Shown here: positions 30,967 to 45,213 of the stretch, in pieces
Numbering within the stretch: position 1 is the first letter of the stretch
How the letters are laid out: each line of letters opens with the position of its first letter
DNA from: an uncultured Clostridia bacterium
Lineage (GTDB): Bacteria > Bacillota > Clostridia > Oscillospirales > CAG-272
Assembly (NCBI GenBank): GCA_944391805.1
Contig: CALXUY010000036.1
Location: forward strand, 4,772-68,771
Length of the DNA: 64,000 nt
Reading direction: 5' to 3'
Position numbers and translations under genes: made by a program
Notes under the pieces: model-generated
The model's database searches: none
Told to the model about the DNA's origin: nothing
The model's input: the letters and a program-made list of their open reading frames with translations, nothing else

Positions 30967-31022
30967 TCAAGCCGTCCCGCGGCAGCAAAAAAAGACAAAG
31001 ACGCCTTTTTCATTCCAGAATC

Positions 31023-31040
31023 AAAGACGCCTTTGCCTTT
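31023..31040 (-). promoter_or_regulatory. Hexaloop hairpin AAAGGC-AAAGGC-GUCUUU in the pyrG leader
   Basis: On the minus-strand RNA this forms a 6-bp stem (with one G:U pair) and the loop AAAGGC. The same 17-nt motif AAAGGCAAAGRCGTCTT occurs twice in the GS type III leader. A partial direct repeat lies at 30996-31008. Confidence 0.35.
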
Positions 31041-31104
31041 TTGATATTTTCTTGTATAACGGAGCCGAAAAACCTCATCGGCGCCATTTCTTTTACCGCA
31101 GAAT

Positions 31105-32945: not shown

Positions 32946-33210
32946 AATCGTTTCCTCCGAAACAAAAGATTTCAGCATTCTATAGGGCAAGTGCTGTACT
33001 CGCGGTGCCACCTATATTTGTTCTTTTTTTCGCCTCCGATAAGGCTGTGTCGATTGACGCACGACCGGGCGGCGCACCTACTCGGGGTTCCCCTTTCGGA
33101 TTGCAGCTCGAAAAGTGTTCTTCATGCGGCCCTGCCATACGGCTCCCACCGTCCCGCACTCGCTGTGGGCAGGATTCCCGCATTACTTTTCTTTTCTCTA
33201 ACGCTTTTGG
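32946..33210 (-). promoter_or_regulatory. T-box leader (probable Asn specifier) upstream of asnB
   Basis: The minus strand carries AGAGA and AGTA stem I elements, GGTGGGAG in a distal-loop-like region, a GAAGAACA specifier-loop candidate (AAC at 33117-33119) and the T-box sequence AAATATAGGTGGCACCGCG (33001-33012). Confidence 0.6.
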
Positions 33211-33302: not shown

Positions 33303-35039
33303 TTACTCCACATCCTGCAGTGCGTCGTAGCCCTCCTCGCCGGTGCGGACCTTGACGGCGTTTTCCACATCATAAACGAAGATCTTGCCGTCGCCGATAT
33401 GTCCGGTGTAGAGCACCTTTTTGGCGGTTTCGATCACATCGCGCACAGGCACCTTGCTGACCACAATGTCAACCTGCACCTTGGGCAGCAGGCTTGCCTC
33501 CACCGGCACGCCGCGGTAATACTCCGGCTTGCCCTTCTGCGCGCCGCAGCCCAGCACATGCGAGACGGTCATACCCGTGATACCGATGCCCATCATCGCG
33601 TTCTTCAGCGTCTCCAAACGCGCCTCTTTACAGATGATTTCCACCTTTGTCAGCTTGGGAACGCTGCCCTCCGGCACTATGGGCACCTGTTTGACGGGAA
33701 TTGCCTCCGCAACGGGCGCATCGCCCGTGACGGCAGGCGCAGAAGCCGGCTCGCCGTAGTCAAGGCTTTCCACCGCGGTGACAAAATCGGGATATGCATG
33801 GTTGCCGTGCTCGCCGATGTCAAGGCCGGCGATCTCCTCTTCGGCCGAGACGCGGATGCCGACCGTCTTTTTCAGGATCAGCCAGACAACCGAGGAAGCG
33901 ACAAAGGTAAACGCGCCGACCGCGACAATCCCCAGAAGCTGCGTTCCGAGCAGCCCGAACCCGCCGCCGTAAAACAGTCCGTTTGTGGTGGAAAGTGAGG
34001 TAACTCCCTCCTTTGCAAACAGCCCCACAAAAACGGTTCCGAGTACGCCGCAGCCGAGATGCACCGAGGTGGCGCCCACCGGGTCGTCAATCTTGATGCG
34101 GTCAAAGAACATCACGGCAAACACCACGAACACACCGGCAATCGCGCCGATCAGCAGCGAAACCTCAATCGTGAAGTAGGCACATCCGCCTGTGACGGCA
34201 ACCAGACCGGCCAAGCAGCCGTTGACGGTCATGCCCAGGTCCGGCTTGCCGATGAAGATCCATGCGGTGATTGTGGATGTCACCACCGCGGCGATTGCGG
34301 AGGTGTTGGTGGTCATCAGGATGTGCATGATGTCGGAGGGGTTCTGAAAGCTCATGGTGGAGCCTGGGTTGAAGCCGAACCAGCCCAGCCAGAGCACGAA
34401 CAGGCCGATCACCGCCAGCGACATATTGTGCCCGGGAATGGCGCGGGGCTTTCCGTTTTTGTCGTACTTTCCGATCCGCGGGCCCAGTATCATGGCACCG
34501 GAAAGTGCCGCCCAGCCGCCCACCGAGTGCACCACGGTATCGCCGGCAAAATCCATAAAGCCGAGATCGGCGAGCCATCCGCCGCCCCATACCCAGTGCC
34601 CGACCACCGGATAGATGACCAGCGTCAGCACAAACGAAAAGATGATAAAGGAGATGTACTTGACCCGTTCCGCAACCGCGCCCGAAACGATGGTTGCGGC
34701 CGTGCCGCAGAACACAAGCTGGAAGAAGAACTTGCCCCAGAACGGCACGCTGGAGGTCAGCGTATCGTCATAGGCCGAGAGATCCGCGTTGCCGAGGATC
34801 CAGAGGTGCTCGGTGCCGAGGATCGGGTTGTCGCCGCCGAACATCAGCCCCCACCCCAGGAGCAGAAAGCCCAGCGAGGAAATGGCAAACACAATGAAGT
34901 TTTTGGAGAGAATGTTGACGGTATTTTTTGATCTGGCAAAGCCGGCCTCTACCGAGGCAAAGCCGAGATTCATAAAGAACACCAGAATCGCGGCGAGAAA
35001 GACCCATAGCGTATCTATCAAACTGAACATTTCTGTCAC
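33303..35039 (-). CDS. amt: Ammonium transporter fused to a C-terminal P-II (GlnK/GlnB-like) domain
   Basis: Amt N-terminus (FFMNLGFASVEAGFARSKN) and about 11 TM helices. A Pro/Ala linker follows, then a P-II fold sequence KVEIICK...GITGMTVSHVLGCGAQKGKPEYYRG...DGKIFVYDVENAVKVRTGE. Confidence 0.85.
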   Translation of the reverse strand: MTEMFSLIDTLWVFLAAILVFFMNLGFASVEAGFARSKNTVNILSKNFIVFAISSLGFLLLGWGLMFGGDNPILGTEHLWILGNADLSAYDDTLTSSVPFWGKFFFQLVFCGTAATIVSGAVAERVKYISFIIFSFVLTLVIYPVVGHWVWGGGWLADLGFMDFAGDTVVHSVGGWAALSGAMILGPRIGKYDKNGKPRAIPGHNMSLAVIGLFVLWLGWFGFNPGSTMSFQNPSDIMHILMTTNTSAIAAVVTSTITAWIFIGKPDLGMTVNGCLAGLVAVTGGCAYFTIEVSLLIGAIAGVFVVFAVMFFDRIKIDDPVGATSVHLGCGVLGTVFVGLFAKEGVTSLSTTNGLFYGGGFGLLGTQLLGIVAVGAFTFVASSVVWLILKKTVGIRVSAEEEIAGLDIGEHGNHAYPDFVTAVESLDYGEPASAPAVTGDAPVAEAIPVKQVPIVPEGSVPKLTKVEIICKEARLETLKNAMMGIGITGMTVSHVLGCGAQKGKPEYYRGVPVEASLLPKVQVDIVVSKVPVRDVIETAKKVLYTGHIGDGKIFVYDVENAVKVRTGEEGYDALQDVE

Positions 35040-35083: not shown

Positions 35084-37180
35084 TTATTTCACGCCGAACA
35101 GCAGATCCCCATAGGTCGGGAACGGCCAGTATTTTTCGGCGGTTACGGTCTCGGCCTCATCGCACACCACACGCAGCTTGCTCATGGCGGCCAGCACCGT
35201 GTCGCGGATGGCATAGGATTCCTCGCAGATGTCGTCAGCCTCCTTCAGACCGAGCAGCACGGTCTCCAGCTCGGCGGTGTACTGCGAGATCTGGTCGGCA
35301 AGCATCGACAGCTTTTTGAGCGTTCCCTTCTCATAGCCGCAGGAGACGTCGCTGCCCACAGCCTGCTTCTTGGCAATGCTCCCGGCCAGCTCACCGGCAT
35401 ATCCGGCCACCGCCGGCAGAATCTGCTTCTTCACCATATCCACCATGGTGTTGGCCTCGATCACCACGGTCTTGCAGTAGTTCTCCAGCATGATCTCGCA
35501 TCTGGACTTCAGCTCAACCTCGGAATAGACCTTGTGAGAGACCAGCATTCTGACGTTCTTTTCGTCCAGCAGGTGGGGCATACAGTCGGGCGTGGTGCGG
35601 TAGTTGCAAAGGCCTCTCTTCTCGGTGGCCTCCTTGATCCATGCGTCGTCGTACCCGTTTCCGTTGAAAATGATGCGCTTGTGATCCTTGATGGTCTTTT
35701 TGATCATCTCGTGCAGGGCGGTTTCAAAATCGGCGGCCCCCTCGAGACGGTCGGCGTAAATCCTGAGCGATTCGGCAACCGCGGCATTGAGCATGATGTT
35801 GGCGCAGGCGATGCTGTTGGAGGAGCCGAGCATCCGGAACTCGAACTTGTTGCCCGTGGAGGCAAACGGTGAGGTGCGGTTGCGGTCGGTGGTAGCTCGG
35901 TTGAATTTGGGAAGCACATCCGCGCCGAGCTTCATCTGCGTCTTGGCGATTCCGCTGTAGGGCGCGTCGGTTTCAATGGCCTCCAGAACCGCGTTCAGCT
36001 CGTCGCCGAGGAAGATGGAAACCACAGCCGGCGGTGCTTCATTCGCCCCGAGACGGTGATCGTTGCCGGCAGTGGCCACGGCAATGCGAAGCAGATCCTG
36101 GTAATCGTCAACCGCCTGGATCACCGCGCACAGGAAGAGCAGGAACTGCGCATTCTCATACGGCGTCTCACCGGGGGACAAAAGGTTCTGTCCCGCGTCG
36201 GTCGCGATCGACCAGTTGTTGTGCTTGCCGCTCCCGTTGACCCCCGCAAAGGGCTTTTCGTGCAGCAGGCAGACCAGCCCGTGCCGCAGCGCAACCTTCT
36301 GCATGATCTCCATCGTGAGCTGGTTGTGGTCGGTTGCGATGTTGGTGGTGGAGTAGATCGGCGCCAGCTCATGCTGCGCGGGAGCCACCTCGTTGTGCTC
36401 GGTCTTGGCATAAATGCCCAGCTTCCACAGCTCCTCGTTCAGATCCTCCATGTAGGCGGCAACGCGGGGCTTGATGACGCCGAAATAATGGTCATCCATT
36501 TCCTGCCCCTTGGGGGGCTTTGCCCCGAACAGCGTGCGGCCGGTGTAAATCAGATCCTTTCTTTGATTGTACATCTCTCTGTCAACCAGAAAATACTCCT
36601 GCTCCGGCCCTACGCTGCTGATGACCCGTTTGACGCTGGTGTTTCCGAACAGCCGCAGAATGCGCAGCGCCTGCTGGCTGAGCGCCTCCATCGAGCGCAG
36701 CAGCGGTGTCTTTTTGTCGAGCGCTTCCCCGCCATAGGAACAGAACGCGGTGGGGATGCACAGCGTTTTTCCCTTGATAAACGCATAGGAGGTGGGGTCC
36801 CATGCGGTGTAGCCTCTTGCCTCAAAGGTGGCGCGCAGCCCGCCCGACGGGAAGGAGGAGGCGTCCGGCTCCCCCTTGATCAGCTCCTTGCCCGAAAATT
36901 CCATGATCACGCCGCCGTCCGGCGCGGGGGAAATGAAGCTGTCGTGCTTCTCTGCGGTCACGCCGGTGAGCGGCTGGAACCAGTGCGTATAGTGCGTGGC
37001 TCCCCGCTCTACAGCCCAATCCTTCATCGCCGCGGCGACAACGTTCGCCACGGTGAGGTCAAGCTCCTTCCCCTCGTCAATGGTCTTTTTGAGCGAAGCG
37101 TACACCTCTGCAGGAAGCATCGACTTCATCACTCTGTCATCAAAGACCAGGCTGCCGAACTCTTCTTTTACCGTTGCCAT
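35084..37180 (-). CDS. Glutamine synthetase type III
   Basis: 698 aa. N-terminus [34 protein letters not shown]...[14 protein letters not shown] is typical of GS type III. AAGGAG RBS before the ATG at 37180. The 150 codons upstream in the track belong to the leader. Confidence 0.9.
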
Positions 37181-37197
37181 ACTGTATTCTCCTTTGT

Positions 37198-37250
37198 AAA
37201 TAAAGATAAAGACGCCCCATGGTTTTCCACATGTAAGACGTCTTTGCCTT
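37198..37250 (-). terminator. Leader terminator 2 of GS type III, with an overlapping hexaloop hairpin
   Basis: Minus RNA forms AAAGACG...CGTCTTT followed by ATCTTTATTT, immediately before the RBS. The alternative hairpin AAGGC-AAAGAC-GTCTT (37235-37250) uses the terminator's 5' arm. Confidence 0.5.
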
Positions 37251-37620
37251 TGTGATTGATATGATTGTAGACGAAAGCATTTCCGGCCTTCACAGCGCCG
37301 GCTGATCACTGCGGAAGGACGAGTGCCGCTGCACGGCTGCGCCGCAAAGCAAACCCCGGCTCCCGGTATGCTGCACCTGTCCCCAGATGAAGGGATCGGT
37401 TCACGACTGCAAAACCGTTGCTGCCGCCCGGCAGTGCAATCGTTCCGGAAATCCCGCTTCCCCTGCGCGCTTTGCCATGCTCCATTGCTGCCTCCGCAGC
37501 TCTGGAAGGCGGCCTTCCGGTCCGGGAAAGCACCCGCGCGCAGAAATGCAAACCGGCTGTCCGCTCTGTTGTTTGCCATGCGTCCGGTCTCACAGCATTC
37601 CCTCCTTTTCCGCGCCAACC

Positions 37621-37672
37621 AAAAAAGCAAAGGCGTCTCCGATGGGTCCCCCCATCAAGACGCCTTTGCCTT
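37621..37672 (-). terminator. Leader terminator 1 of GS type III, with an overlapping hexaloop hairpin
   Basis: 12-bp stem GCAAAGGCGTCT / AGACGCCTTTGC plus TTTTTT, starting about 15 nt after the predicted transcription start. The alternative hairpin AAGGC-AAAGGC-GTCTT lies at 37657-37672. Confidence 0.6.
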
Positions 37673-37682
37673 TACGCCGCCT

Positions 37683-37711
37683 ATTATACACCTTCCGCAA
37701 GCGTTTGTCAA
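37683..37711 (-). promoter_or_regulatory. Consensus promoter of GS type III and amt-PII
   Basis: Minus strand reads TTGACA, 17 nt, TATAAT. Confidence 0.6.
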
Positions 37712-37773
37712 GGGGTTTTTGAAAAGTTTTTTGAAAAATCTTGCAGAATCCGAAATTTTTTGATGAAAATGGC

Positions 37774-37802
37774 TTGACATTCTGCAAGATGCGTGCTATA
37801 AT
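37774..37802 (+). promoter_or_regulatory. Consensus promoter of the GOGAT / GS type I / ANTAR operon
   Basis: TTGACA, 17 nt, TATAAT. Divergent from the GS type III promoter, with 62 bp between the two -35 boxes. Confidence 0.6.
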
Positions 37803-37809
37803 ACTTGCA

Positions 37810-37872
37810 TATGAGCAATGGCGTTCATGGGCGACAGCAACCGCTGTCCCTCCGTGAACGTCTTTCTTTTTT
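37810..37872 (+). terminator. Leader attenuator of the GOGAT operon (hexaloop hairpin plus terminator)
   Basis: Hairpin TATGAGC-AATGGC-GTTCATG (37810-37829) overlaps the 5' arm of an 11-bp terminator stem (37820-37830 with 37852-37862), followed by TTTCTTTTTT. Confidence 0.55.
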
Positions 37873-37895
37873 CATTGGAAAGGCTGGGTTGATAT

Positions 37896-38990
37896 ATGTT
37901 GAAAGAAGGTCAGGTGCGCATTCCGTCCGGGTGCGCGATTGCGGCTGTCATTGCCAGGGACGGCGAGAGGATGTCCGGCAGACAGATTGTCGACGCGATG
38001 AAGCCCATGCATGACCGCTCCAACGGTCTGGGAGGCGGGTTTGCCGCTTACGGAATTTATCCGGAATACCGGGATCTGTACGCGCTGCATTTTTTCTTTG
38101 ACGAGCGCGCGACCAGAAAGAACTGCGAGATCTTTCTGAAGGAACGCTTTGAAATTGTGAAATCCGAAATCATTCCCACGCGCAAAATTGCCGCGATTAC
38201 CGATGAACCGATTATCTGGAGATATTTTGTCGCGCCGCTGCGCTCGGTTCTGGCCTCGATGCAGGTGGACGAAAAGGAATTTGTGGTGCGCACAGCCATG
38301 AAAATCAACACCGAAATGCCTGGCGCATACGTATTCTCCTGCGGGAAGAACATGGGAACCTTCAAAGCCGTGGGCTTCCCGGAGGACGTCGGCGAATTTT
38401 ACCGGCTGGAGGAATACGAGGGCTACTCCTGGACCGCGCACGGCAGATACCCGACCAACACGCCCGGCTGGTGGGGCGGTGCGCACCCGTTCACCCTGCT
38501 CGATTACTCGGTTGTGCACAACGGAGAGATCTCCTCCTACGACGCGAACAGGAGATATATTGAAATGTTCGGCTATCAGTGCAATCTGCAAACCGATACC
38601 GAGGTCATCACCTATATTATGGATTACCTGCTGCGTGTGCAGGGGCTGACGCTGGAAGAGGCAGCGAGCGTGGTGGCAGCTCCCTTCTGGAGCACCATTG
38701 AAAACAAAACCGACCCCGCGGAAAGGGAAAAATACGTCTATCTGCGCACGCTCTTCCCGAGCCTGCTGGTCACCGGGCCGTTTTCGATTATTCTCGGCTT
38801 CAACGGCGGGCTGATGGCGCTGAACGACCGCCTGAAGCTGCGCTCGATGGTTGCCGGAGAAAAGGGCAACAGGGTTTATATCGCGAGCGAGGAGGCCGCC
38901 ATCCGCGTCATGGAGCCGGACGCCGAAAATATCTGGGCGCCGGCCGGCGGCGAGCCGGTCATTATCAAGGTACAGGAGGGGTGCTTCTGA
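37896..38990 (+). CDS. Class II glutamine amidotransferase (archaeal-type glutamate synthase domain 1)
   Basis: PSGCAIAAVI (Cys nucleophile region), HGRYPTNTPG and VHNGEISSY motifs. First gene of the split GOGAT cluster. Confidence 0.8.
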   Translation: MLKEGQVRIPSGCAIAAVIARDGERMSGRQIVDAMKPMHDRSNGLGGGFAAYGIYPEYRDLYALHFFFDERATRKNCEIFLKERFEIVKSEIIPTRKIAAITDEPIIWRYFVAPLRSVLASMQVDEKEFVVRTAMKINTEMPGAYVFSCGKNMGTFKAVGFPEDVGEFYRLEEYEGYSWTAHGRYPTNTPGWWGGAHPFTLLDYSVVHNGEISSYDANRRYIEMFGYQCNLQTDTEVITYIMDYLLRVQGLTLEEAASVVAAPFWSTIENKTDPAEREKYVYLRTLFPSLLVTGPFSIILGFNGGLMALNDRLKLRSMVAGEKGNRVYIASEEAAIRVMEPDAENIWAPAGGEPVIIKVQEGCF

Positions 38991-40495
38991 TGAGTGTCCG
39001 TTTCATCTATCCCGAATTTGAGGTGATCCGCAACGAGAGCCGCTGCATCACCTGCCGCGTTTGCGAACGACAGTGTGCGAACGAGGTGCATACATACGAT
39101 GAGAACCGCAAGGTCATGCTCAGCGACGAATCCAAGTGTGTGGATTGCCAGCGCTGTGTTTCGCTCTGCCCCACCCGGGCACTGAAGATTGTAAAAAGCG
39201 ACTGCGCGCTGCGCGAAAACGCGAACTGGCAGCAGGATACCATTCACGAGATTTACAAGCAGGCCGAGAGCGGCGGCGTGCTGCTCTCCTCGATGGGAAA
39301 TCCAAAGCCGCTTCCGGTGTATTGGGACCATATTCTGATCAACGCCTCGCAGGTCACCAATCCCCCGATCGACCCGCTGCGCGAGCCGATGGAAACCAAG
39401 GTCTTTCTGGGCAAAAAGTCCGAAAAAATCCGGCGCGATGCAAACGGCCGGCTGCTCTGCAGGCTGCCTCCGCAGCTCGAGCTGTCGATGCCGATGATGT
39501 TCTCGGCGATGAGCTACGGCTCCATCAGCTACAACGCGCATGAGAGCCTGGCCCGCGCGGCGCGGGAGCTTGGCATTCTCTACAACACGGGAGAGGGCGG
39601 CCTGCACGAGGATTTTTATGTCTACGGCGAGAACACCGTTGTGCAGGTGGCTTCCGGCCGCTTCGGCGTTCACGAGGAGTATCTGAAGGCCGGCGCGGCG
39701 GTGGAAATCAAAATGGGTCAGGGGGCAAAGCCCGGCATCGGCGGACATCTGCCGGGGGCAAAAATCGTGGGGGACGTCTCGCGCACCCGCATGATTCCCG
39801 AAGGCTCGGACGCGATCTCCCCCGCGCCGCACCACGATATTTACTCAATTGAAGACCTGCGCCAGCTTGTGTTCTCGATCAAGGAGGCGACCGAATACAA
39901 AAAGCCGGTGATTGTAAAGGTTGCGGCGGTTCACAACATCGCCGCCATTGCCAGCGGCATTGCGCGCAGCGGCGCGGACATCATCGCCATCGACGGCTTT
40001 CGGGGCGGCACCGGCGCGGCTCCCACCCGCATCCGGGACAACGTCGGCATTCCGATCGAGCTGGCACTGGCAGCGGTGGATCAGCGGCTGCGGGATGAAG
40101 GGATCCGCAACAACGTGTCGCTGGTGGTCGGCGGCAGCATCCGCTCGGCTGCCGATGTGGTAAAAGCCATTGCTCTGGGCGCCGACGCCTGCTATATTGC
40201 CACCGCGGCGCTTCTGGCGCTGGGCTGCCACCTCTGCCGCACCTGCCAGACCGGCAAATGCAACTGGGGCATTGCCACACAGCGCCCCGAGCTGGTCAAG
40301 CGTCTCAATCCCGACCTCGGCTCCCGGCGGCTGGTCAATCTGATGCGCGCATGGCAGCATGAGATCAAGGAGCTGATGGGCGGCATGGGAATCAACTCGA
40401 TTGAGGCGCTGCGCGGCAACCGCCTGATGCTGCGCGGCGTTGGGCTGACCAACAGAGAGCTGCGGATTCTCGGAATTTCCCACGCCGGGGAATGA
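38990..40495 (+). CDS. Glutamate synthase FMN-binding domain protein with an N-terminal 2x[4Fe-4S] ferredoxin module
   Basis: CITCRVCERQC and CVDCQRCVSLCP clusters, then the GltB domain 2 motifs GEGG, IKMGQGAKPGIGGHLPG and IAIDGFRGGTGAAP. ATG overlaps the upstream TGA. Confidence 0.85.
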   Translation: MSVRFIYPEFEVIRNESRCITCRVCERQCANEVHTYDENRKVMLSDESKCVDCQRCVSLCPTRALKIVKSDCALRENANWQQDTIHEIYKQAESGGVLLSSMGNPKPLPVYWDHILINASQVTNPPIDPLREPMETKVFLGKKSEKIRRDANGRLLCRLPPQLELSMPMMFSAMSYGSISYNAHESLARAARELGILYNTGEGGLHEDFYVYGENTVVQVASGRFGVHEEYLKAGAAVEIKMGQGAKPGIGGHLPGAKIVGDVSRTRMIPEGSDAISPAPHHDIYSIEDLRQLVFSIKEATEYKKPVIVKVAAVHNIAAIASGIARSGADIIAIDGFRGGTGAAPTRIRDNVGIPIELALAAVDQRLRDEGIRNNVSLVVGGSIRSAADVVKAIALGADACYIATAALLALGCHLCRTCQTGKCNWGIATQRPELVKRLNPDLGSRRLVNLMRAWQHEIKELMGGMGINSIEALRGNRLMLRGVGLTNRELRILGISHAGE

Positions 40496-40514
40496 AAGGT
40501 GAGGTACGGTTATC

Positions 40515-40943
40515 ATGAAGCGGATTTATGTCAACGAAAAGTGGTGCCTTGGCTGCCACCTGTGCGAATACAACTGTGCGTTTGCCAATTCCGGCATGAA
40601 AAATATGGCCGACGCGCTCAAGGGCAAGCCGATTTACCCGAGAATCCACATCGAAGGAGACGAAAAAATCGCTTACGCGGTTTCCTGCCGCCACTGCACC
40701 GACCCGATTTGCGTCAAAAGCTGCATCGCGGGCGCGCTTTCGGTTCGGGACGGCGTCATCCGGATCGACCGGGAGAGGTGCGTGGGCTGCCTGACCTGCA
40801 TTCTGGTATGTCCCTATGGGGCGCTGGCCGTGGGGGAAACCGGCGTGATGCAGAAGTGCGAGCTTTGCCTGCAGAACGCCTGCGGCGAGCCGGCATGCGT
40901 CAGGGGCTGCCCCAACCATGCGATTGTATATGAGGAGAGGTGA
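40515..40943 (+). CDS. 4Fe-4S dicluster ferredoxin-domain protein
   Basis: CLGCHLCEYNC, CRHC...C and CVGCLTCILVCP motifs. Confidence 0.8.
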   Translation: MKRIYVNEKWCLGCHLCEYNCAFANSGMKNMADALKGKPIYPRIHIEGDEKIAYAVSCRHCTDPICVKSCIAGALSVRDGVIRIDRERCVGCLTCILVCPYGALAVGETGVMQKCELCLQNACGEPACVRGCPNHAIVYEER

Positions 40944-40948
40944 CGGAT

Positions 40949-42196
40949 ATGGCGGAATATGTGATTATCGGAAACGGTGTGGCCGCCGTCGGGTGCATCG
41001 AAGGCATCCGCAGTGTTGACAGGGCCACGCCCATCGCGGTGATTTCGGAGGAGACACATCCTGTATACGGGCGTCCGTTGATCTCCTATTATCTGGAAGG
41101 AAAAAGCAAGCCGGAGAAAATGAACTATCGTCCCGCCAATTTTTATGAGGCGAACAACTGCCGCGTTCTGTATGGCCGTCGTGCGGTTTCGATCGACCGG
41201 GAGGCAAAATCGGTTCTGTTGGACGACGGCTCGGCGCTCCCCTACACCGCCGTATGCGTGGCCACCGGCTCCTCCCCCTTTGTTCCCCCGATCCCGGGGC
41301 TGGAAACCGTGCCCGCGCGCTTCTCCTTCATGACGCTGGACGACGCGCTTGCGCTGGAAAAAGCCATCGGCAGGGACAGCCGCGTGCTGATCGTGGGCGC
41401 GGGTCTGATCGGCCTGAAATGCGCCGAGGGGCTCCGCGCGCGCGTGGGAAGCATTGCGGTCTGCGATCTCGCGCCCCGCGTACTCTCGAGCATTCTCGAC
41501 GACACCTGCGCCGCGATGATGCAGGAGCGGCTCGAGGCCAACGGCATTCGGCTGATGCTCGGCGACACGGTGGCGGAATTCAACGGCGGCCATGCGGTGA
41601 TGAAAAGCGGGGCCGTGGTGGATTTTGACGTTCTGGTCATGGCGGTCGGCGTTCGTGCCAATACCGCATTGGTGAAAGACATCGGGGGCGAGGTCAACCG
41701 CGGCATCCTTGTAGACGCGCGCATGCGCACTTCCCTGCCGGATCTCTACGCCGCCGGCGACTGCACCGAGGGGATGGACGCCTCGCTGGGCGCACGCCGG
41801 GTGCTTGCCATCCTTCCCAACGCCTACCTGCAAGGGCACGCGGCAGGTGTGAATATGGCGGGCGGCCGGGAGGTGTTCGACAAGGCCATTCCGATGAACT
41901 CGATCGGCTTTTTCGGTCTGCACGCCATCACCGCCGGGAGCTATTTCGGCCCGGACGAGGGGGGCGAGCTGTACGAGGAGAAGGGGGACGGATTTCTCAA
42001 ACGCCTGTTCACCCGGGACGGGCTGCTCACGGGCTATATTCTGATCGGCCAGGTGGAACGCGCGGGCATTTACACGGCGCTCATCCGGGAACGGGTTCCT
42101 CTGAACACCGTCAACTTCGAGCTGCTCAAAAAAGCTCCGACCTTATTCGCTTATTCACAAAATCAACGTAGAAATATGCTGGGAGGTGTGGTATAA
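40949..42196 (+). CDS. NAD(P)/FAD-dependent pyridine nucleotide-disulfide oxidoreductase (GOGAT electron-input subunit candidate)
   Basis: Two Rossmann dinucleotide-binding motifs (VIIGNGVAAVG, VLIVGAGLIGLK) and AAGDC. Start is ATG 40949 or GTG 40940. Confidence 0.75.
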   Translation: MAEYVIIGNGVAAVGCIEGIRSVDRATPIAVISEETHPVYGRPLISYYLEGKSKPEKMNYRPANFYEANNCRVLYGRRAVSIDREAKSVLLDDGSALPYTAVCVATGSSPFVPPIPGLETVPARFSFMTLDDALALEKAIGRDSRVLIVGAGLIGLKCAEGLRARVGSIAVCDLAPRVLSSILDDTCAAMMQERLEANGIRLMLGDTVAEFNGGHAVMKSGAVVDFDVLVMAVGVRANTALVKDIGGEVNRGILVDARMRTSLPDLYAAGDCTEGMDASLGARRVLAILPNAYLQGHAAGVNMAGGREVFDKAIPMNSIGFFGLHAITAGSYFGPDEGGELYEEKGDGFLKRLFTRDGLLTGYILIGQVERAGIYTALIRERVPLNTVNFELLKKAPTLFAYSQNQRRNMLGGVV

Positions 42197-42918
42197 TGAA
42201 GAGGATTGACGCGGCCGGAATGGATTATGCCGCTCTGAACGAAGCCATCCGGCAGAGCCGGGGGGATGTCGAGATCACCCACTGCCTCGGGCAGCGCTTC
42301 ATCGCGGCGGGCCTTTCGGACCGGAGCATCACGATTCAGGGCACGCCGGGCAACGCGCTCGGAGCCTACCTCAACGGCGCGGCCATCCGCGTCCGCGGCA
42401 ACGCGCAGGATGCGGTCGGAGACACCATGAACGACGGCTCCATTGTCATCGACGGCAACATCGGCGACGCCGCCGGGTATGCCATGCGAGGCGGAAAGAT
42501 CTATGTCCGGGGCAACGCCGGCTACCGCGCCGGCATTCATATGAAGGAATATCAGGATAAGGTTCCCGTGATGATGATCGGCGGAAAGGCCGGCAGCTTT
42601 CTCGGCGAATATCAGGCCGGAGGGGTGATTGTGGTGCTCGGGCTGGAGGCCTCCGACCGCCCCATTGTCAGCAATTTCCCCTGCACCGGGATGCACGGCG
42701 GAAAAATGCTTCTCCGGTCGGACTGCAAAGGCATCCGCTTCCCGGAGCAGGTCCGCGTTGCGCCGGCCGACCGCAGCGCACTGGATGGGCTGAAAAAATA
42801 TCTCGACGAATATTGCGCCCTGTTCGGGCTGGACGCGGGAGAGCTGCTGTCCGCTCCCTTCACCGTCGTGACACCGGATACCAAAAATCCGTACCATCAG
42901 ATGTATGTGGCAAACTGA
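42196..42918 (+). CDS. GXGXG-motif protein (glutamate synthase domain 3-like)
   Basis: Repeated beta-helix motifs GTPGNALGAYLNGAAIRVRGNAQDAVGDTMNDGSIVIDGNIGDAAGYAMRGGKIYVRGNAGYRAG. Confidence 0.85.
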   Translation: MKRIDAAGMDYAALNEAIRQSRGDVEITHCLGQRFIAAGLSDRSITIQGTPGNALGAYLNGAAIRVRGNAQDAVGDTMNDGSIVIDGNIGDAAGYAMRGGKIYVRGNAGYRAGIHMKEYQDKVPVMMIGGKAGSFLGEYQAGGVIVVLGLEASDRPIVSNFPCTGMHGGKMLLRSDCKGIRFPEQVRVAPADRSALDGLKKYLDEYCALFGLDAGELLSAPFTVVTPDTKNPYHQMYVAN

Positions 42919-43002
42919 AGCGGCAGACCGCGGCTATGCCGGGACGCCGCCCGACACAATCAAACAAATTGCCGCCGCAGGGCGGCGGAATGGAGGAGCT
43001 TC

Positions 43003-44220
43003 ATGAAATATACTGCGGAGGAAGTGATTCAATATGTCCGGGAGGAGGACGTCAAATTCATCCGTCTGGCTTTCTGCGACATATACGGGAAGCAAAAGAA
43101 CATCTCGATCATGCCGAGCGAGCTTCCGCGCGCCTTTGCGGACGGAATTGCGTTTGACGCCTCCGCGATCCGTGGCTTTGGGGACGAGGCGCGCTCCGAC
43201 CTGATGCTGCACCCGGATCCCTCCACGCTGACAGTGCTGCCCTGGCGCCCCGAGCACGGGCGAGTGGTCCGCATGTTCTGCAGCATCACCTACCCGGACG
43301 GCAGGCTGTTTGAGTGTGACACCCGCAGCATCCTGATCCGGGCGATTGCCGATGCGAAACAGGCAGGCGTCACCTTTGATTTCGGCCCCGAGCTGGAGTT
43401 TTATCTGTTTCAGCTCGACGAACAGGGCAACAAAACCCACACGCCCTATGACGAGGCCGGATATATGGACATCGCCCCCGACGACAAAGGGGAAAACATC
43501 CGTCGGGAGATCTGCCTGATGCTTGAGCAGATGGGCATTCGTCCCGAAAGCTCGCACCATGAGGAGGGCCCGGGGCAGAATGAGATCGACTTCCGCTATT
43601 CGGACGCGCTCACGGCCGCGGACAACGCCATGACCTTTGCCACAGTGGTCAAAACCGTATCGGGCAGAAACGGCCTGTGGGCCGATTTTTCCCCCAAGCC
43701 CCTGAAGGACAAGGCAGGAAACGGGTTCCACATCAACCTGTCCGCCAAAGACAATACCAAACAGGATCTGCTGCCCCACATCATCGCCGGCGTGCTGCAT
43801 CTGATCCCGGAGATGTCCGCCTTCCTCAACCCGAGAGAGGATTCCTATGAGCGCTTCGGCTTCAGCAAGGCTCCGGCTTACATCTCCTGGTCGGCAGAAA
43901 ACCGCTCCCAGCTGATTCGCGTTCCGGCAGCGGTTTATGAGCAAAAGCGGATGGAGCTGCGTTCTCCCGACCCCACCGCGAACCCGTATCTTGCGTTTGC
44001 CCTGATTATTTACGCCGGTCTGTATGGCATTCGGAACCGGTTATTGCCCCCGCCGGCCGCCGATTTCAACCTTTTCAAGGCCGATGAAGCGACATTGAAG
44101 CAGCTTCGGAGACTGCCCGCCTCATTGGATGAGGCCATCGCCGTGATGCAGAAGAGCGAATTCATTCGGGAGCATCTGCCCGCGCAGATCATCGGGCTTT
44201 ACGGCAGAAAACTCATCTGA
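43003..44220 (+). CDS. glnA: Glutamine synthetase family protein, short type I-like (405 aa)
   Basis: Beta-grasp N-terminus VKFIRLAFCDIYGKQK and catalytic motifs FGPELEFYLF, HHEEGPGQNEIDF and NGFHINLS. No adenylylation-loop region seen. Confidence 0.8.
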   Translation: MKYTAEEVIQYVREEDVKFIRLAFCDIYGKQKNISIMPSELPRAFADGIAFDASAIRGFGDEARSDLMLHPDPSTLTVLPWRPEHGRVVRMFCSITYPDGRLFECDTRSILIRAIADAKQAGVTFDFGPELEFYLFQLDEQGNKTHTPYDEAGYMDIAPDDKGENIRREICLMLEQMGIRPESSHHEEGPGQNEIDFRYSDALTAADNAMTFATVVKTVSGRNGLWADFSPKPLKDKAGNGFHINLSAKDNTKQDLLPHIIAGVLHLIPEMSAFLNPREDSYERFGFSKAPAYISWSAENRSQLIRVPAAVYEQKRMELRSPDPTANPYLAFALIIYAGLYGIRNRLLPPPAADFNLFKADEATLKQLRRLPASLDEAIAVMQKSEFIREHLPAQIIGLYGRKLI

Positions 44221-44260
44221 ATCAGAATTTCGGAGTTCCGTGCAAAGGAGGGAGCCAAAC

Positions 44261-44845
44261 ATGAGCTTGCAGGAGAATATCTACAGCGTTCTGGTGGTAT
44301 CCGCATCCGACGCCTTCAATACGGCATTGGCAAATCTGCTCCCTGATTCCAGGTTTGACCCCATCCGAACAGAAACAAGCGTCAACGCGGCAAAGCGTGC
44401 GATTGCGGACCGGGCCTATGATTTTATCGTCGTCAATTCTCCCCTCCCGGATGATACCGGCGTACGCTTTGCCGAGGAGCTGTCCGGCGTCAGAACCACG
44501 GTTGCGCTCCTGATGGTGCGCTCGGACGTCTACGCAGCCACCTACGCGAGAGTTGCCGAGCACGGTGTGTTTGTTCTTCCCAAGCCCACATCCAAGCTCA
44601 TTATGTCTCAGGCGTTTGACTGGATGATCGCCACGCGGGAGCGGCTGAAAAAGTTTGAGAGAAAAACCGTTTCCACCGAGGAAAAAATGAAGGAAATCCG
44701 TCTGGTCAACCGCGCAAAATGGATTCTGATCGACCATCTGAAAATGACCGAGCCGGACGCGCACCGCTACATCGAAAAGCAGGCGATGGACCGCTGCATT
44801 TCCAAGCGGGAGGTCGCGGAGGAAATTATGAAAACCTATACCTGA
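44261..44845 (+). CDS. ANTAR-domain RNA-binding antiterminator with a receiver-like (pseudo-receiver) N-terminus
   Basis: C-terminus IRLVNRAKWILIDHLKMTEPDAHRYIEKQAMDRCISKREVAEEIM fits the ANTAR three-helix pattern. The N-terminal REC-like fold reads DFIVVN where the phospho-Asp is expected. AAGGAGGGA RBS. Confidence 0.8.
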   Translation: MSLQENIYSVLVVSASDAFNTALANLLPDSRFDPIRTETSVNAAKRAIADRAYDFIVVNSPLPDDTGVRFAEELSGVRTTVALLMVRSDVYAATYARVAEHGVFVLPKPTSKLIMSQAFDWMIATRERLKKFERKTVSTEEKMKEIRLVNRAKWILIDHLKMTEPDAHRYIEKQAMDRCISKREVAEEIMKTYT

Positions 44846-45128: not shown

Positions 45129-45213
45129 GCGGAAGTGGCGGAACTGGCAGACGCGCACGTTTGAGGGGCGTGTGGTTCACACCGTACGGGTTCAAGTCCC
45201 GTTTTCCGCACCA
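45129..45213 (+). tRNA. tRNA-Leu (anticodon GAG), CCA encoded
   Basis: Hand fold: acceptor GCGGAAG/TTTCCGC, anticodon stem CACGT/GCGTG, loop TTGAGGG, long variable arm, T-arm ACGGG-TTCAAGT-CCCGT. Confidence 0.85.

Follow-up and report, generated by a model that had tools for sequence, protein, structure and literature searches.

The leader under study belongs to the type III glutamine synthetase gene glnN of an uncultured gut Clostridia bacterium and lies on the minus strand of the 64,000-nucleotide stretch of DNA analysed here (the window). A base-by-base check gave the order promoter, terminator T1, 370-nt spacer, terminator T2, ribosome-binding site (RBS) and glnN, and the coordinates given for this leader by an earlier sequence-only reading were all borne out on this strand. 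The leader and the genes that follow it comprise:

37683..37711, minus strand: sigma-70-type promoter (TTGACA at 37711-37706, 17-nt spacer, TATAAT at 37688-37683)
37657..37672, minus strand: putative antiterminator hairpin H1, AAGGC-AAAGGC-GUCUU (DNA AAGGC-AAAGGC-GTCTT)
37621..37669, minus strand: intrinsic terminator T1, with a 12-bp G+C-rich stem, an inner 6-bp helix and U6
37251..37620, minus strand: G+C-rich 370-nt spacer between the two attenuators
37306..37593, minus strand: RBS-preceded GTG open reading frame (ORF) of 95 codons within the spacer
37235..37250, minus strand: putative antiterminator hairpin H1', AAGGC-AAAGAC-GUCUU (DNA AAGGC-AAAGAC-GTCTT)
about 37198..37245, minus strand: intrinsic terminator T2, with a weaker stem and an interrupted U tail, directly 5' of the RBS
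35084..37180, minus strand: glnN, glutamine synthetase type III, 698 aa (Pfam GSIII_N, Gln-synt_C and Gln-synt_C-ter)
33303-35039: amtB-glnB fusion gene, 45 nt after glnN (Pfam Ammonium_transp and P-II)

The glnN promoter matches the consensus at 12 of 12 positions, and transcription is predicted to start near 37676. H1 consists of a 5-bp stem with one G.U pair and a hexaloop with A1, A2, G4, G5 and C6. The 12-bp stem of T1 (GCAAAGGCGTCT/AGACGCCTTTGC, 37669-37627) is followed by T6 at 37626-37621; its 5' arm lies wholly within H1 and takes up 12 of the 16 nt of that hairpin. The RBS of glnN reads AAAGGAGA (37196-37189), with the ATG at 37180. Folding energies were -37.7 kcal/mol for T1 (z = -9.6) and -19.1 kcal/mol for T2 (z = -5.0), against -2.6 kcal/mol for each of H1 and H1' alone; hence, the small hairpin can prevail over its terminator only if it is stabilised. 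A search of 36800-38100 against Rfam (E ≤ 10) returned only noise (P11, mir-218 and a lncRNA) and no relevant match, and across the whole window tRNA alone passed the Rfam gathering score. A glutamine riboswitch (glnA RNA), or another Rfam leader family, was rejected because no covariance-model match was found.

Across Clostridia, the hairpin and an overlapping terminator were detected in at least 49 of 86 glnN leaders, with two or more units in 14, according to an automated attenuator scan that undercounts tandem cases (e.g., L007 and L093). The leader collection comprises at least 58 attenuators and was accompanied by a working covariance model (CM R1). Within the window itself, the hairpin 16-mer was matched six times with up to three mismatches, compared with 1.0 match expected, and six matches were reached in none of 100 shuffles. 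The stems of the small hairpin covary among orthologous leaders, with 73-94% of cells paired. The lower figure comes from a first set of 64 rows picked without demanding stem pairing, where 73% of stem cells were paired versus 39-50% with slid partner columns (observed value reached in 0/500 shuffles; pair counts AU 34/CG 15, GC 47/AU 7 and GU 38/GC 13/AU 5). In a curated alignment (A2), the hairpin was 94% and the terminator 84% paired, and the terminator showed compensatory changes even facing loop positions 3, 5 and 6. The small hairpin is therefore real and conserved, and the earlier proposal of two serial terminators, each exclusive with an A1/G4 hexaloop hairpin, is supported by the covariation of both hairpin and terminator in dozens of orthologous leaders.

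These results bear on whether the small hairpins matter at all. They could be incidental if T1 and T2 were leaky terminators or pause sites without regulation that keep glnN expression constitutively low; alone, the hairpins have a negligible stability of -2.6 kcal/mol, and the U tail of T2 is poor. We consider this very unlikely, given that covarying changes preserve self-complementarity within the 5' arm and that the loop hardly varies between families, neither of which a terminator needs, and that the unit is confined to leaders of nitrogen metabolism.

The composition of the element also argues for an RNA signal. The second stem pair is most often G.U (38/64 rows in the first set, 26/42 in alignment A2), a strand-specific pair that is functional only in RNA of this strand. 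The inverted repeat AAAGRC-N6-GTCTTT could alternatively work at the DNA level, as the operator of a repressor or roadblock protein; it lies near the promoter in many leaders. That its commonest second pair would be a mismatch in duplex DNA makes this extremely unlikely, as do the asymmetric 'loop', which is the best conserved part, the occurrence of the element hundreds of nucleotides from a promoter (T2), and the complementary 3' arm and U run that always accompany it.

The hairpins carry the features of canonical ANTAR targets: an A1/G4 hexaloop (AAAGGC at T1, AAAGAC at T2), a stem of at least 3 bp with compensatory AU/CG and GC/AU exchanges, and mutual exclusion with an intrinsic terminator, whose 5' arm lies at least largely inside the hairpin at T1, at T2 and in the pyrG leader described below. 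Among the loops of 56 related attenuators, position 1 was A in 52 and G in four; the search pattern required A2 and G4, which are therefore not independent observations in this tally. Conservation extends beyond A1 and G4 to loop positions 2 (fixed by the pattern), 5 and 6 and to the closing C-G pair. The A at position 5 of the T2 loop is a minority variant (11/56 loops), which we count against the ANTAR reading.

The same unit occurs elsewhere in this genome, upstream of the GOGAT operon, pyrG and purC-purA. The related leaders and the putative regulatory genes in the window are:

30985..31041, minus strand: attenuator in the leader of pyrG (CTP synthase, identified by Pfam), with a 16-bp terminator and U7; promoter at 31133-31105
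37813..37872, plus strand: attenuator of the GOGAT-glnA-ANTAR operon, divergent from glnN; promoter at 37774-37802
43003..44220, plus strand: short type I glutamine-synthetase-like (GS-like) gene directly upstream of the ANTAR gene (Pfam Gln-synt_N and Gln-synt_C)
44240..44845, plus strand: receiver-ANTAR gene (Pfam PF03861, E = 2.6e-16)

An exact copy of the 16-mer hairpin lies in the pyrG leader (31039-31024), where the attenuator folds at -26.3 kcal/mol (z = -6.9). CM R1 scored T1 and T2 of glnN at 48.7 and 46 bits and the pyrG element at 51.2 bits; together with the purCA leader, these occupy the range of 41-51 bits in this genome, and the next match reaches 23.6 bits. In the GOGAT leader, the register is different: the hairpin, with sequence GAGC-AAUGGC-GUUC at 37813-37826, extends into the 5' arm of its terminator, which spans 37820-37862 and has a U run after it (-29.3 kcal/mol, z = -5.4), and the terminator arm begins within the loop. 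This hairpin is conserved among congeners, with loop position 3 variable. Beyond this genome, the covariance model found the element in 26 of 120 Clostridia genomes, and the 20 best matches elsewhere precede glnN (9), amt (4), asnA (2), asnB, GOGAT and gdhA. We propose that glnN, GOGAT-glnA-ANTAR, pyrG and purC-purA, which share the hairpin-terminator unit, form one nitrogen regulon.

Exactly one ANTAR gene is present in this genome (44240-44845), 7 kb from the glnN leader, and it adjoins the GOGAT genes and the type I GS gene on the plus strand (37896-44845). Alignment of its product to Rv1626, AmiR, NasR and EutV revealed a receiver-like N-terminal domain with Asn at the position of the phospho-acceptor Asp (DFIVVN vs DLVIMD in Rv1626). 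The ANTAR domain retains equivalents of EutV Lys/Arg143, 147, 149, Glu160 and Met172 and has His at the position of EutV Tyr164, as does AmiR, with the alignment to EutV alone being weak (E = 0.6). A Pfam scan of ten neighbouring genes found no histidine kinase, and the GS-like protein encoded directly upstream is a candidate signal-sensing partner.

The distribution of the element points to the ANTAR protein. ANTAR genes were present in 24 of 26 motif-positive Clostridia genomes versus 45 of 94 motif-negative ones (Fisher p = 3e-5), although the association is not exclusive, as about half of the motif-negative genomes carry an ANTAR gene. Moreover, in at least 10 genomes one contig carries both a motif match and the ANTAR gene, 4-10 kb apart. 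The two ANTAR-less motif genomes (G037 and G075) were rejected as counter-examples, since their matches resemble plain terminators, show weak hairpin pairing or none, and lack a downstream nitrogen gene.

The literature offers a close parallel. In Geobacter sulfurreducens, GnfK/GnfR antitermination acts on the leaders of nitrogen-fixation genes, glnK and amtB, and the ANTAR regulator GnfR binds RNA with CAGGCAAGGGCGCC, that is, GGC-AAGGGC-GCC, preventing premature termination at nifH (PMC2995071, Ueki and Lovley 2010). The conserved RNA there, CAGGCAANGGCGCC, forms a GGC/GCC stem around an AANGGC hexaloop, as in the leaders described here; the site lies at or overlaps the 5' side of an intrinsic terminator in nitrogen-gene leaders, and loss of the regulator that binds it leads to premature termination (PMC2995071). 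A GnfR-type consensus, GGC-AANGGC-GYC, is seen in alignments A1 and A2; T1 (GGC-AAAGGC-GUC) fits it and T2 (GGC-AAAGAC-GUC) differs at one loop position. As in the GnfR system, the leaders that carry the element are those of nitrogen genes. The two systems nonetheless differ in several respects. GnfR is a response regulator that can be phosphorylated and is paired with a cognate kinase, whereas the protein here has Asn at the Asp position, a GS-like neighbour and no adjacent kinase gene. Promoters are RpoN-dependent in Geobacter but of the sigma-70 type here, and the Geobacter regulon comprises nif genes rather than GS III, GOGAT, pyrG and purCA.

Canonical dual-hexaloop ANTAR targets, those of EutV (eutP/G/S/A), NasR (nasF) and AmiR (amiE), share with these leaders a short stem, an A1/G4 hexaloop (the ANTAR recognition signature; PMC3369931, Ramesh et al. 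2012), exclusivity with an intrinsic terminator and an ANTAR factor. They differ in having two hairpins, P1 and P2, joined by a constrained linker, with only P2 overlapping the terminator, and more loop positions as well as the closing C-G and G.U pairs are conserved in the leaders here. The glnN leader thus departs from the canonical dual-hexaloop arrangement with a short linker. In the EutV reference system, antitermination needs both hairpins (PMC3369931, PMC8934654), and we count the single hairpin per terminator against the ANTAR reading, although one hexaloop is the minimal ANTAR binding unit (PMC8934654, Walshe et al. 2022).

The sequence-only reading had found only one hairpin per terminator, and this proved correct. 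H1 begins 3-4 nt downstream of the predicted transcription start, which leaves no space for a further hairpin upstream of it. Across 58 attenuators, second A1/G4 hexaloop hairpins showed no enrichment over shuffles, either downstream (about six, 4.1 expected) or upstream (nine, 7.6 expected); a hidden second ANTAR hairpin was therefore rejected, leaving a single hairpin per terminator. We see about even chances that one hexaloop hairpin lying at least largely within the terminator 5' arm suffices for co-transcriptional ANTAR antitermination, and that a large class of natural nitrogen leaders across gut Clostridia can do without the P1 'recruitment' hairpin, with A2, G5, C6, the invariant closing C-G and the adjacent G.U supplying the missing affinity or speed.

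The earlier reading had left a choice between a variant mode of ANTAR recognition and a different factor. A protein-dependent antiterminator served by another RNA-binding protein, or by the GS-like protein acting on RNA, would suit the degenerate receiver domain, the single hairpin where EutV needs two, and the conservation of loop positions 2, 5 and 6 and of the closing C-G beyond the A1/G4 signature. With ANTAR encoded in nearly all motif genomes (24/26), often within 10 kb of the motif, with GnfR binding the same sequence in vitro (PMC2995071) and with a single hexaloop being enough for ANTAR binding (PMC8934654), this is quite unlikely. The evidence, including the single ANTAR gene of this genome, favours ANTAR, and we regard it as highly probable that the glnN leader contains two ANTAR-type transcription attenuators in series.

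Whether the attenuators act as a simple series depends on the spacer that separates them, which the earlier reading had left without an assigned function, describing its GTG ORF as non-protein-like in composition. This description was upheld. The spacer is unique in the genome (BLAST against the whole genome returned only the spacer itself), and no DNA match was found in 40 relatives (24 congeners and 16 genomes of the same order). In congeners, about 30 nt stand at this position, and tandem attenuators lie back to back, about 70 nt apart. Rfam and Pfam searches, the latter including five ORFs on both strands, gave no match, and the fold of the spacer has z = -1.87. Neither period-3 GC nor stop-codon depletion was detected in it (10 stops versus a background mean of 13.2), and GC by codon phase was 0.65/0.63/0.57 for the ORF compared with 0.58/0.40/0.80 for glnN. 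The 95-codon ORF is thus probably not a gene. Three origins or roles were rejected: a coding or ex-coding region (no Pfam match, no period-3 signal, an ordinary stop count); a conserved structured RNA (no match in the 40 relatives, z only -1.87); and derivation from an IS1182-type, hairpin-duplicating MITE, which is present in dozens of copies whereas the spacer is single-copy. In addition, T1 and T2 differ throughout their apical parts, unlike the identical flanking hairpins expected from a MITE.

If the spacer were functional, whether as a leader ORF that is translated, as the source of an embedded small RNA or as a second regulatory input, the leader would be a two-signal device instead of a simple series. 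Consistent with this are a strong Shine-Dalgarno motif (AAGGAGG), which precedes the ORF's GTG by 7 nt, an A1/G4 hexaloop hairpin (CGGA-AAUGCU-UUCG) 21 nt upstream of H1', and the mildly negative fold z. Such an extra upstream hairpin is, however, expected by chance in about 13% of cases, and the spacer is missing from every assembled congener leader and lacks period-3 composition, stop depletion and any Pfam or Rfam match. We therefore consider a functional spacer unlikely; most likely, it is a functionless expansion found only in this genome.

Under the favoured reading of two ANTAR-type attenuators, RNA polymerase would start at a strong constitutive promoter and stop by default at T1, and any polymerase that escapes would meet T2. 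At each, the weak hexaloop hairpin (consensus stem-C-AANGGC-G-stem) would be transcribed first and hold all or most of the terminator 5' arm. An active ANTAR protein would clamp this hairpin, keeping the 5' arm from the 3' arm and allowing read-through into glnN-amtB/glnB. Placed serially, the attenuators would multiply their read-through probabilities, giving a lower basal level and a steeper response. Tandem T-boxes and tandem TPP or glycine riboswitches similarly place two terminator switches of the same class serially in one leader and sharpen the response. Those switches sense tRNA or metabolites directly, whereas both glnN units would read one protein.

The same hairpin-terminator unit may gate the GOGAT-glnA-ANTAR operon, pyrG and purC-purA. 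As the regulator gene sits in the GOGAT operon, we propose that the ANTAR regulator is autoregulated. The protein, not phosphorylatable at the usual Asp, is probably controlled by the neighbouring GS-like protein, much as AmiC controls AmiR, and its activity would be expected under nitrogen limitation. In Pseudomonas aeruginosa, AmiR is likewise a non-phosphorylatable pseudo-receiver ANTAR protein, sequestered by a ligand-binding partner encoded alongside it. AmiC is an amide sensor with a periplasmic-binding-protein fold, whereas the candidate partner here would be a glutamine-synthetase homologue.

The same module of GOGAT subunits, type I GS and receiver-ANTAR occurs in the glnA-nitR-(nitS)-gltAB cluster of Clostridium saccharobutylicum/acetobutylicum and in Clo1313_2030-2036 of C. 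thermocellum. The reference for the clostridial glnA-nitR cluster is reportedly Stutz 2007. Published work on clusters of this type stressed antisense RNA and proposed antitermination with the RNA target left undefined; it describes neither the tandem glnN leader nor the pyrG and purCA members. Regulation of the homologous C. thermocellum cluster is shared by the GS gene Clo1313_2303 (PMC4676874). In 2012, covariance searches had already placed predicted ANTAR matches of many Clostridia upstream of GS, GOGAT, amt and asparagine synthase genes, several to a regulon (PMC3369931).

Hence, both the element and its link to nitrogen genes were in the literature, and the leader adds a clear further case to a known mechanism of nitrogen control. 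At this locus, the analysis assigns a function to the leader and places the 370-nt spacer outside the conserved mechanism. It also extends the predicted regulon to pyrG and purC-purA, nucleotide-synthesis genes whose products consume glutamine or aspartate. The set of at least 58 attenuators provides a natural test of single-hexaloop ANTAR antitermination, a question raised by the EutV structure paper. More broadly, the module appears to be a main switch for the transcriptional control of nitrogen metabolism in many rumen and gut Clostridia, mostly uncultured, which do without the NtrBC and TnrA paradigms.

The leader of glnN, which encodes a type III glutamine synthetase (GS III), contains two strong default terminators in series (T1 and T2), and the 5' arm of each is sequestered by a weak, conserved and covarying hexaloop hairpin. 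The features are as follows.

Features of the glnN leader, read from the sequence (gene identity from Pfam)
37711-37706 and 37688-37683, minus strand: sigma-70-type promoter, TTGACA and TATAAT (12/12 match)
37672-37657, minus strand: first hairpin, AAGGC-AAAGGC-GTCTT
37669-37627, minus strand: 12-bp stem of T1, followed by T6 at 37626-37621
37620-37251, minus strand: spacer of 370 nt (61% G+C) between T1 and the second hairpin
37250-37235, minus strand: second hairpin, AAGGC-AAAGAC-GTCTT
To about 37198, minus strand: T2, its 5' arm overlapped by the second hairpin
After T2, minus strand: RBS and ATG of the 698-aa GS III gene

The 5' arm of T1 takes up 12 of the 16 nt of the first hairpin. Predicted folding energies were -37.7 kcal/mol for T1 (z = -9.6) and -19.1 kcal/mol for T2 (z = -5.0), and -2.6 kcal/mol for each small hairpin on its own. 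Copies of the hairpin 16-mer in the window were far above chance expectation. Everything that a sequence-only reading had stated as fact about this leader was borne out.

That reading had also proposed that the small hairpins and the terminators exclude one another, and covariation in orthologous leaders supported both structures. The unit, identified by eye and script, comprises a stem, C-AANG(G/A)N-G, the returning stem, a variable apical hairpin, a complementary 3' arm and a U run. It was present in at least 49 of 86 leaders, taken from loci of close GS III relatives (80) and from six congeners (orthologous leaders). In a non-circular alignment of 65 sites, picked only by CAANG[GA]NG and a downstream T run and including several obvious false sites, 73% of stem cells were paired versus 39-50% with the partner slid, and none of 500 column shuffles reached the observed pairing or covariation. 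At individual pairs, AU alternated with CG (34/15) and GC with AU (47/7). Next to the closing C-G, 38 rows had G.U, 13 had G-C and five had A-U; this conservation of G.U favours a structure in the RNA of this strand over a palindrome in the DNA. In a curated alignment of 42 attenuators, the hairpin was 94% paired and the terminator 84% paired, with compensatory terminator changes opposite loop positions 3, 5 and 6. Since both structures are paired and compensated, selection acts on two mutually exclusive structures, as is characteristic of attenuators.

Some of the fetched loci differ in context. In seven (L023, L029, L032 and L033; L061, L066 and L071), glnN lies immediately after pyrG or asnA, and the two genes have no attenuator between them, an order that fits a single nitrogen regulon in which any attenuator lies further upstream. 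MAG contigs labelled Alistipes, Spirochaetales and Bifidobacteriaceae (L029-L032) encode GS III 71-72% identical to this glnN, and L030 and L031 also carry a clostridial-type attenuator, which points to mis-binned contigs or horizontal transfer.

Only one hexaloop hairpin per terminator had been noticed, and this held across 58 attenuators, which were searched for further A1/G4 hexaloop hairpins in the 50 nt before the conserved hairpin and in the stretch from it to the U run. The downstream stretch gave 10 (4.1 expected from shuffles), four of which were the next tandem unit, and the upstream one gave nine (7.6 expected). The apical hairpins of the terminators vary in loop length and sequence; together with the lack of excess, this indicates one conserved hexaloop hairpin per terminator. 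The T1 hairpin starts 3-4 nt past the predicted transcription start, leaving no room for a preceding hairpin. The spacer contains one more A1/G4 hexaloop hairpin, CGGA-AAUGCU-UUCG, at 37272-37285 (minus strand), 21 nt upstream of the T2 hairpin; it could be a P1-like recruitment hairpin, with a chance rate of about 13% and a sequence that is not conserved.

This layout is unlike the textbook dual-hexaloop model, in which the ANTAR target is defined as two A1/G4 hexaloop hairpins (Ramesh et al., PMC3369931), but it matches both the site described earlier in Geobacter and the minimal motif in its revised form. The latter was redefined because the ANTAR dimer contacts one hexaloop, although P1 is still argued to be necessary for antitermination (Walshe et al., PMC8934654). 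In Geobacter, phosphorylated GnfR binds RNA with a conserved sequence, and gnfR mutants show premature termination (PMC2995071); the bound sequence reads GGC-AANGGC-GCC, the same hairpin as in the glnN leader, and provides a biochemical precedent for ANTAR binding to an AANGGC loop. Table S2 of Ramesh et al. (PMC3369931) lists terminator-overlapping matches in many Clostridia upstream of genes for GS, GOGAT, ammonium transporters and asparagine synthase, as many as 13 of them, in six units, in a single species. In C. thermocellum, a homologous GOGAT-GS-ANTAR cluster and the GS gene Clo1313_2303 are co-regulated, and a role as antiterminator has been proposed (PMC4676874). The clostridial system is absent from a 2025 review of antiterminators.

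Pfam annotation places the leader in a nitrogen-assimilation island.

Genes of the nitrogen-assimilation island
Minus strand: glnN, an amtB-glnB fusion gene and asnB
Plus strand, divergent from glnN: four archaeal-type GOGAT subunit genes, a short type I GS gene and a receiver-ANTAR gene

Hairpin-terminator units form a regulon on nitrogen genes in this genome. A perfect promoter of its own precedes the GOGAT operon, whose leader hairpin (GAGC-AATGGC-GTTC) overlaps a terminator; in the pyrG leader, the glnN 16-mer recurs unchanged, together with a 16-bp terminator and U7; and purC-purA, on another contig, is preceded by a copy with one mismatch. A covariance model built from the 42 curated attenuators scored the pyrG, glnN T1, glnN T2 and purC-purA leaders at 41-51 bits, the next match scoring 23.6 bits. 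For the second GS III paralogue (contig C23:15180-17300; 72% identity across the first 200 aa), the promoter is perfect but there is no hairpin-terminator unit, and the same holds for its congener orthologues; the genus thus has one attenuated and one unattenuated glnN.

Other features accompany these leaders. Upstream of the pyrG attenuator (31050-31095, minus strand), AAATGGCGCC and an 8-bp hairpin (GGCGCCGA/TCGGCTCC) without a U run look like the remnant of a first attenuator; a 230-nt G+C-rich stretch from terminator to start codon is open in frame with pyrG. About 60 nt upstream of the purC-purA attenuator, where the transcript begins (L103:510-560, contig C14), an extra hairpin (AGGC-UAUGGC-GUCU, with U at loop position 1 and G at position 4) is followed by a weak hairpin and ATTTCATTT; it could be a recruitment hairpin or a first attenuator that has decayed. 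Between the divergent promoters, 37712-37773 is A/T-rich with TTTTTGAAAA repeats. Many congener genomes contain matches to this region (query positions 56-146), at up to five places each, and it probably serves as a general promoter module resembling an UP element, not as a specific operator. An Rfam scan of the whole window at gathering thresholds returned only a tRNA (45129-45210) and no T-box, including at 32946-33210 before asnB.

The hairpin unit co-occurs tightly, and is linked, with a single ANTAR gene. This genome (94% complete) has exactly one, in the nitrogen island. Among 120 near-complete Clostridia genomes, the model matched in 26 and PF03861 in 69, with ANTAR in 24 of 26 motif-positive versus 45 of 94 motif-negative genomes (odds ratio 13, P = 3e-5). 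The two exceptions are probably ordinary terminators, because their hairpins are poor and no nitrogen gene lies downstream. A match lay 4-10 kb from the ANTAR gene on one contig in at least 10 genomes from eight families, as at this locus. The best 20 matches outside this genome precede glnN (nine), ammonium transporters (four), asnA (two), asnB, a GOGAT subunit gene and gdhA. The ANTAR protein aligns with Rv1626, AmiR, NasR and EutV and retains basic residues, Glu and Met equivalent to the hexaloop contacts of the EutV-RNA structure, with His, as in AmiR, in place of the stacking Tyr of EutV. Asn at the phospho-acceptor position marks it as a pseudo-receiver.

Two attenuators in series, we conclude, are the conserved device. 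Three congener species have two (72-75 nt hairpin to hairpin) and three have one; in the wider set, tandem spacing is usually 65-72 nt, with outliers of 94 and 179 nt; at 422 nt, the spacing here exceeds every other credible value. The spacer had no match among 40 relatives or in Rfam or Pfam, neither codon periodicity nor stop depletion, and a fold only marginally more stable than those of shuffles (z = -1.87). An origin from an IS1182-type MITE was rejected, because the spacer occurs only once in this genome and is not related to that MITE, which is abundant. We regard the spacer as an expansion, seen in this genome only, for which no function could be detected. Its insertion is not datable because contigs of the nearest relatives (91-95% GS identity; G018:C86, G007:C86 and G010:C122) break off within the 5' end of glnN or shortly before it, breaks that the repeated attenuator sequences may have caused.

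The glnN leader device is thus well supported as a real regulatory element. The ANTAR protein, presumably active under nitrogen limitation, would clamp the hairpin as it emerges from the polymerase and thereby prevent terminator folding; by analogy with AmiC-AmiR and NasS-NasT, its activity may be set by the adjacent GS-like protein. The read-through probabilities of the two units would multiply, and the regulator, encoded last in the attenuated GOGAT operon, would feed back positively on itself.
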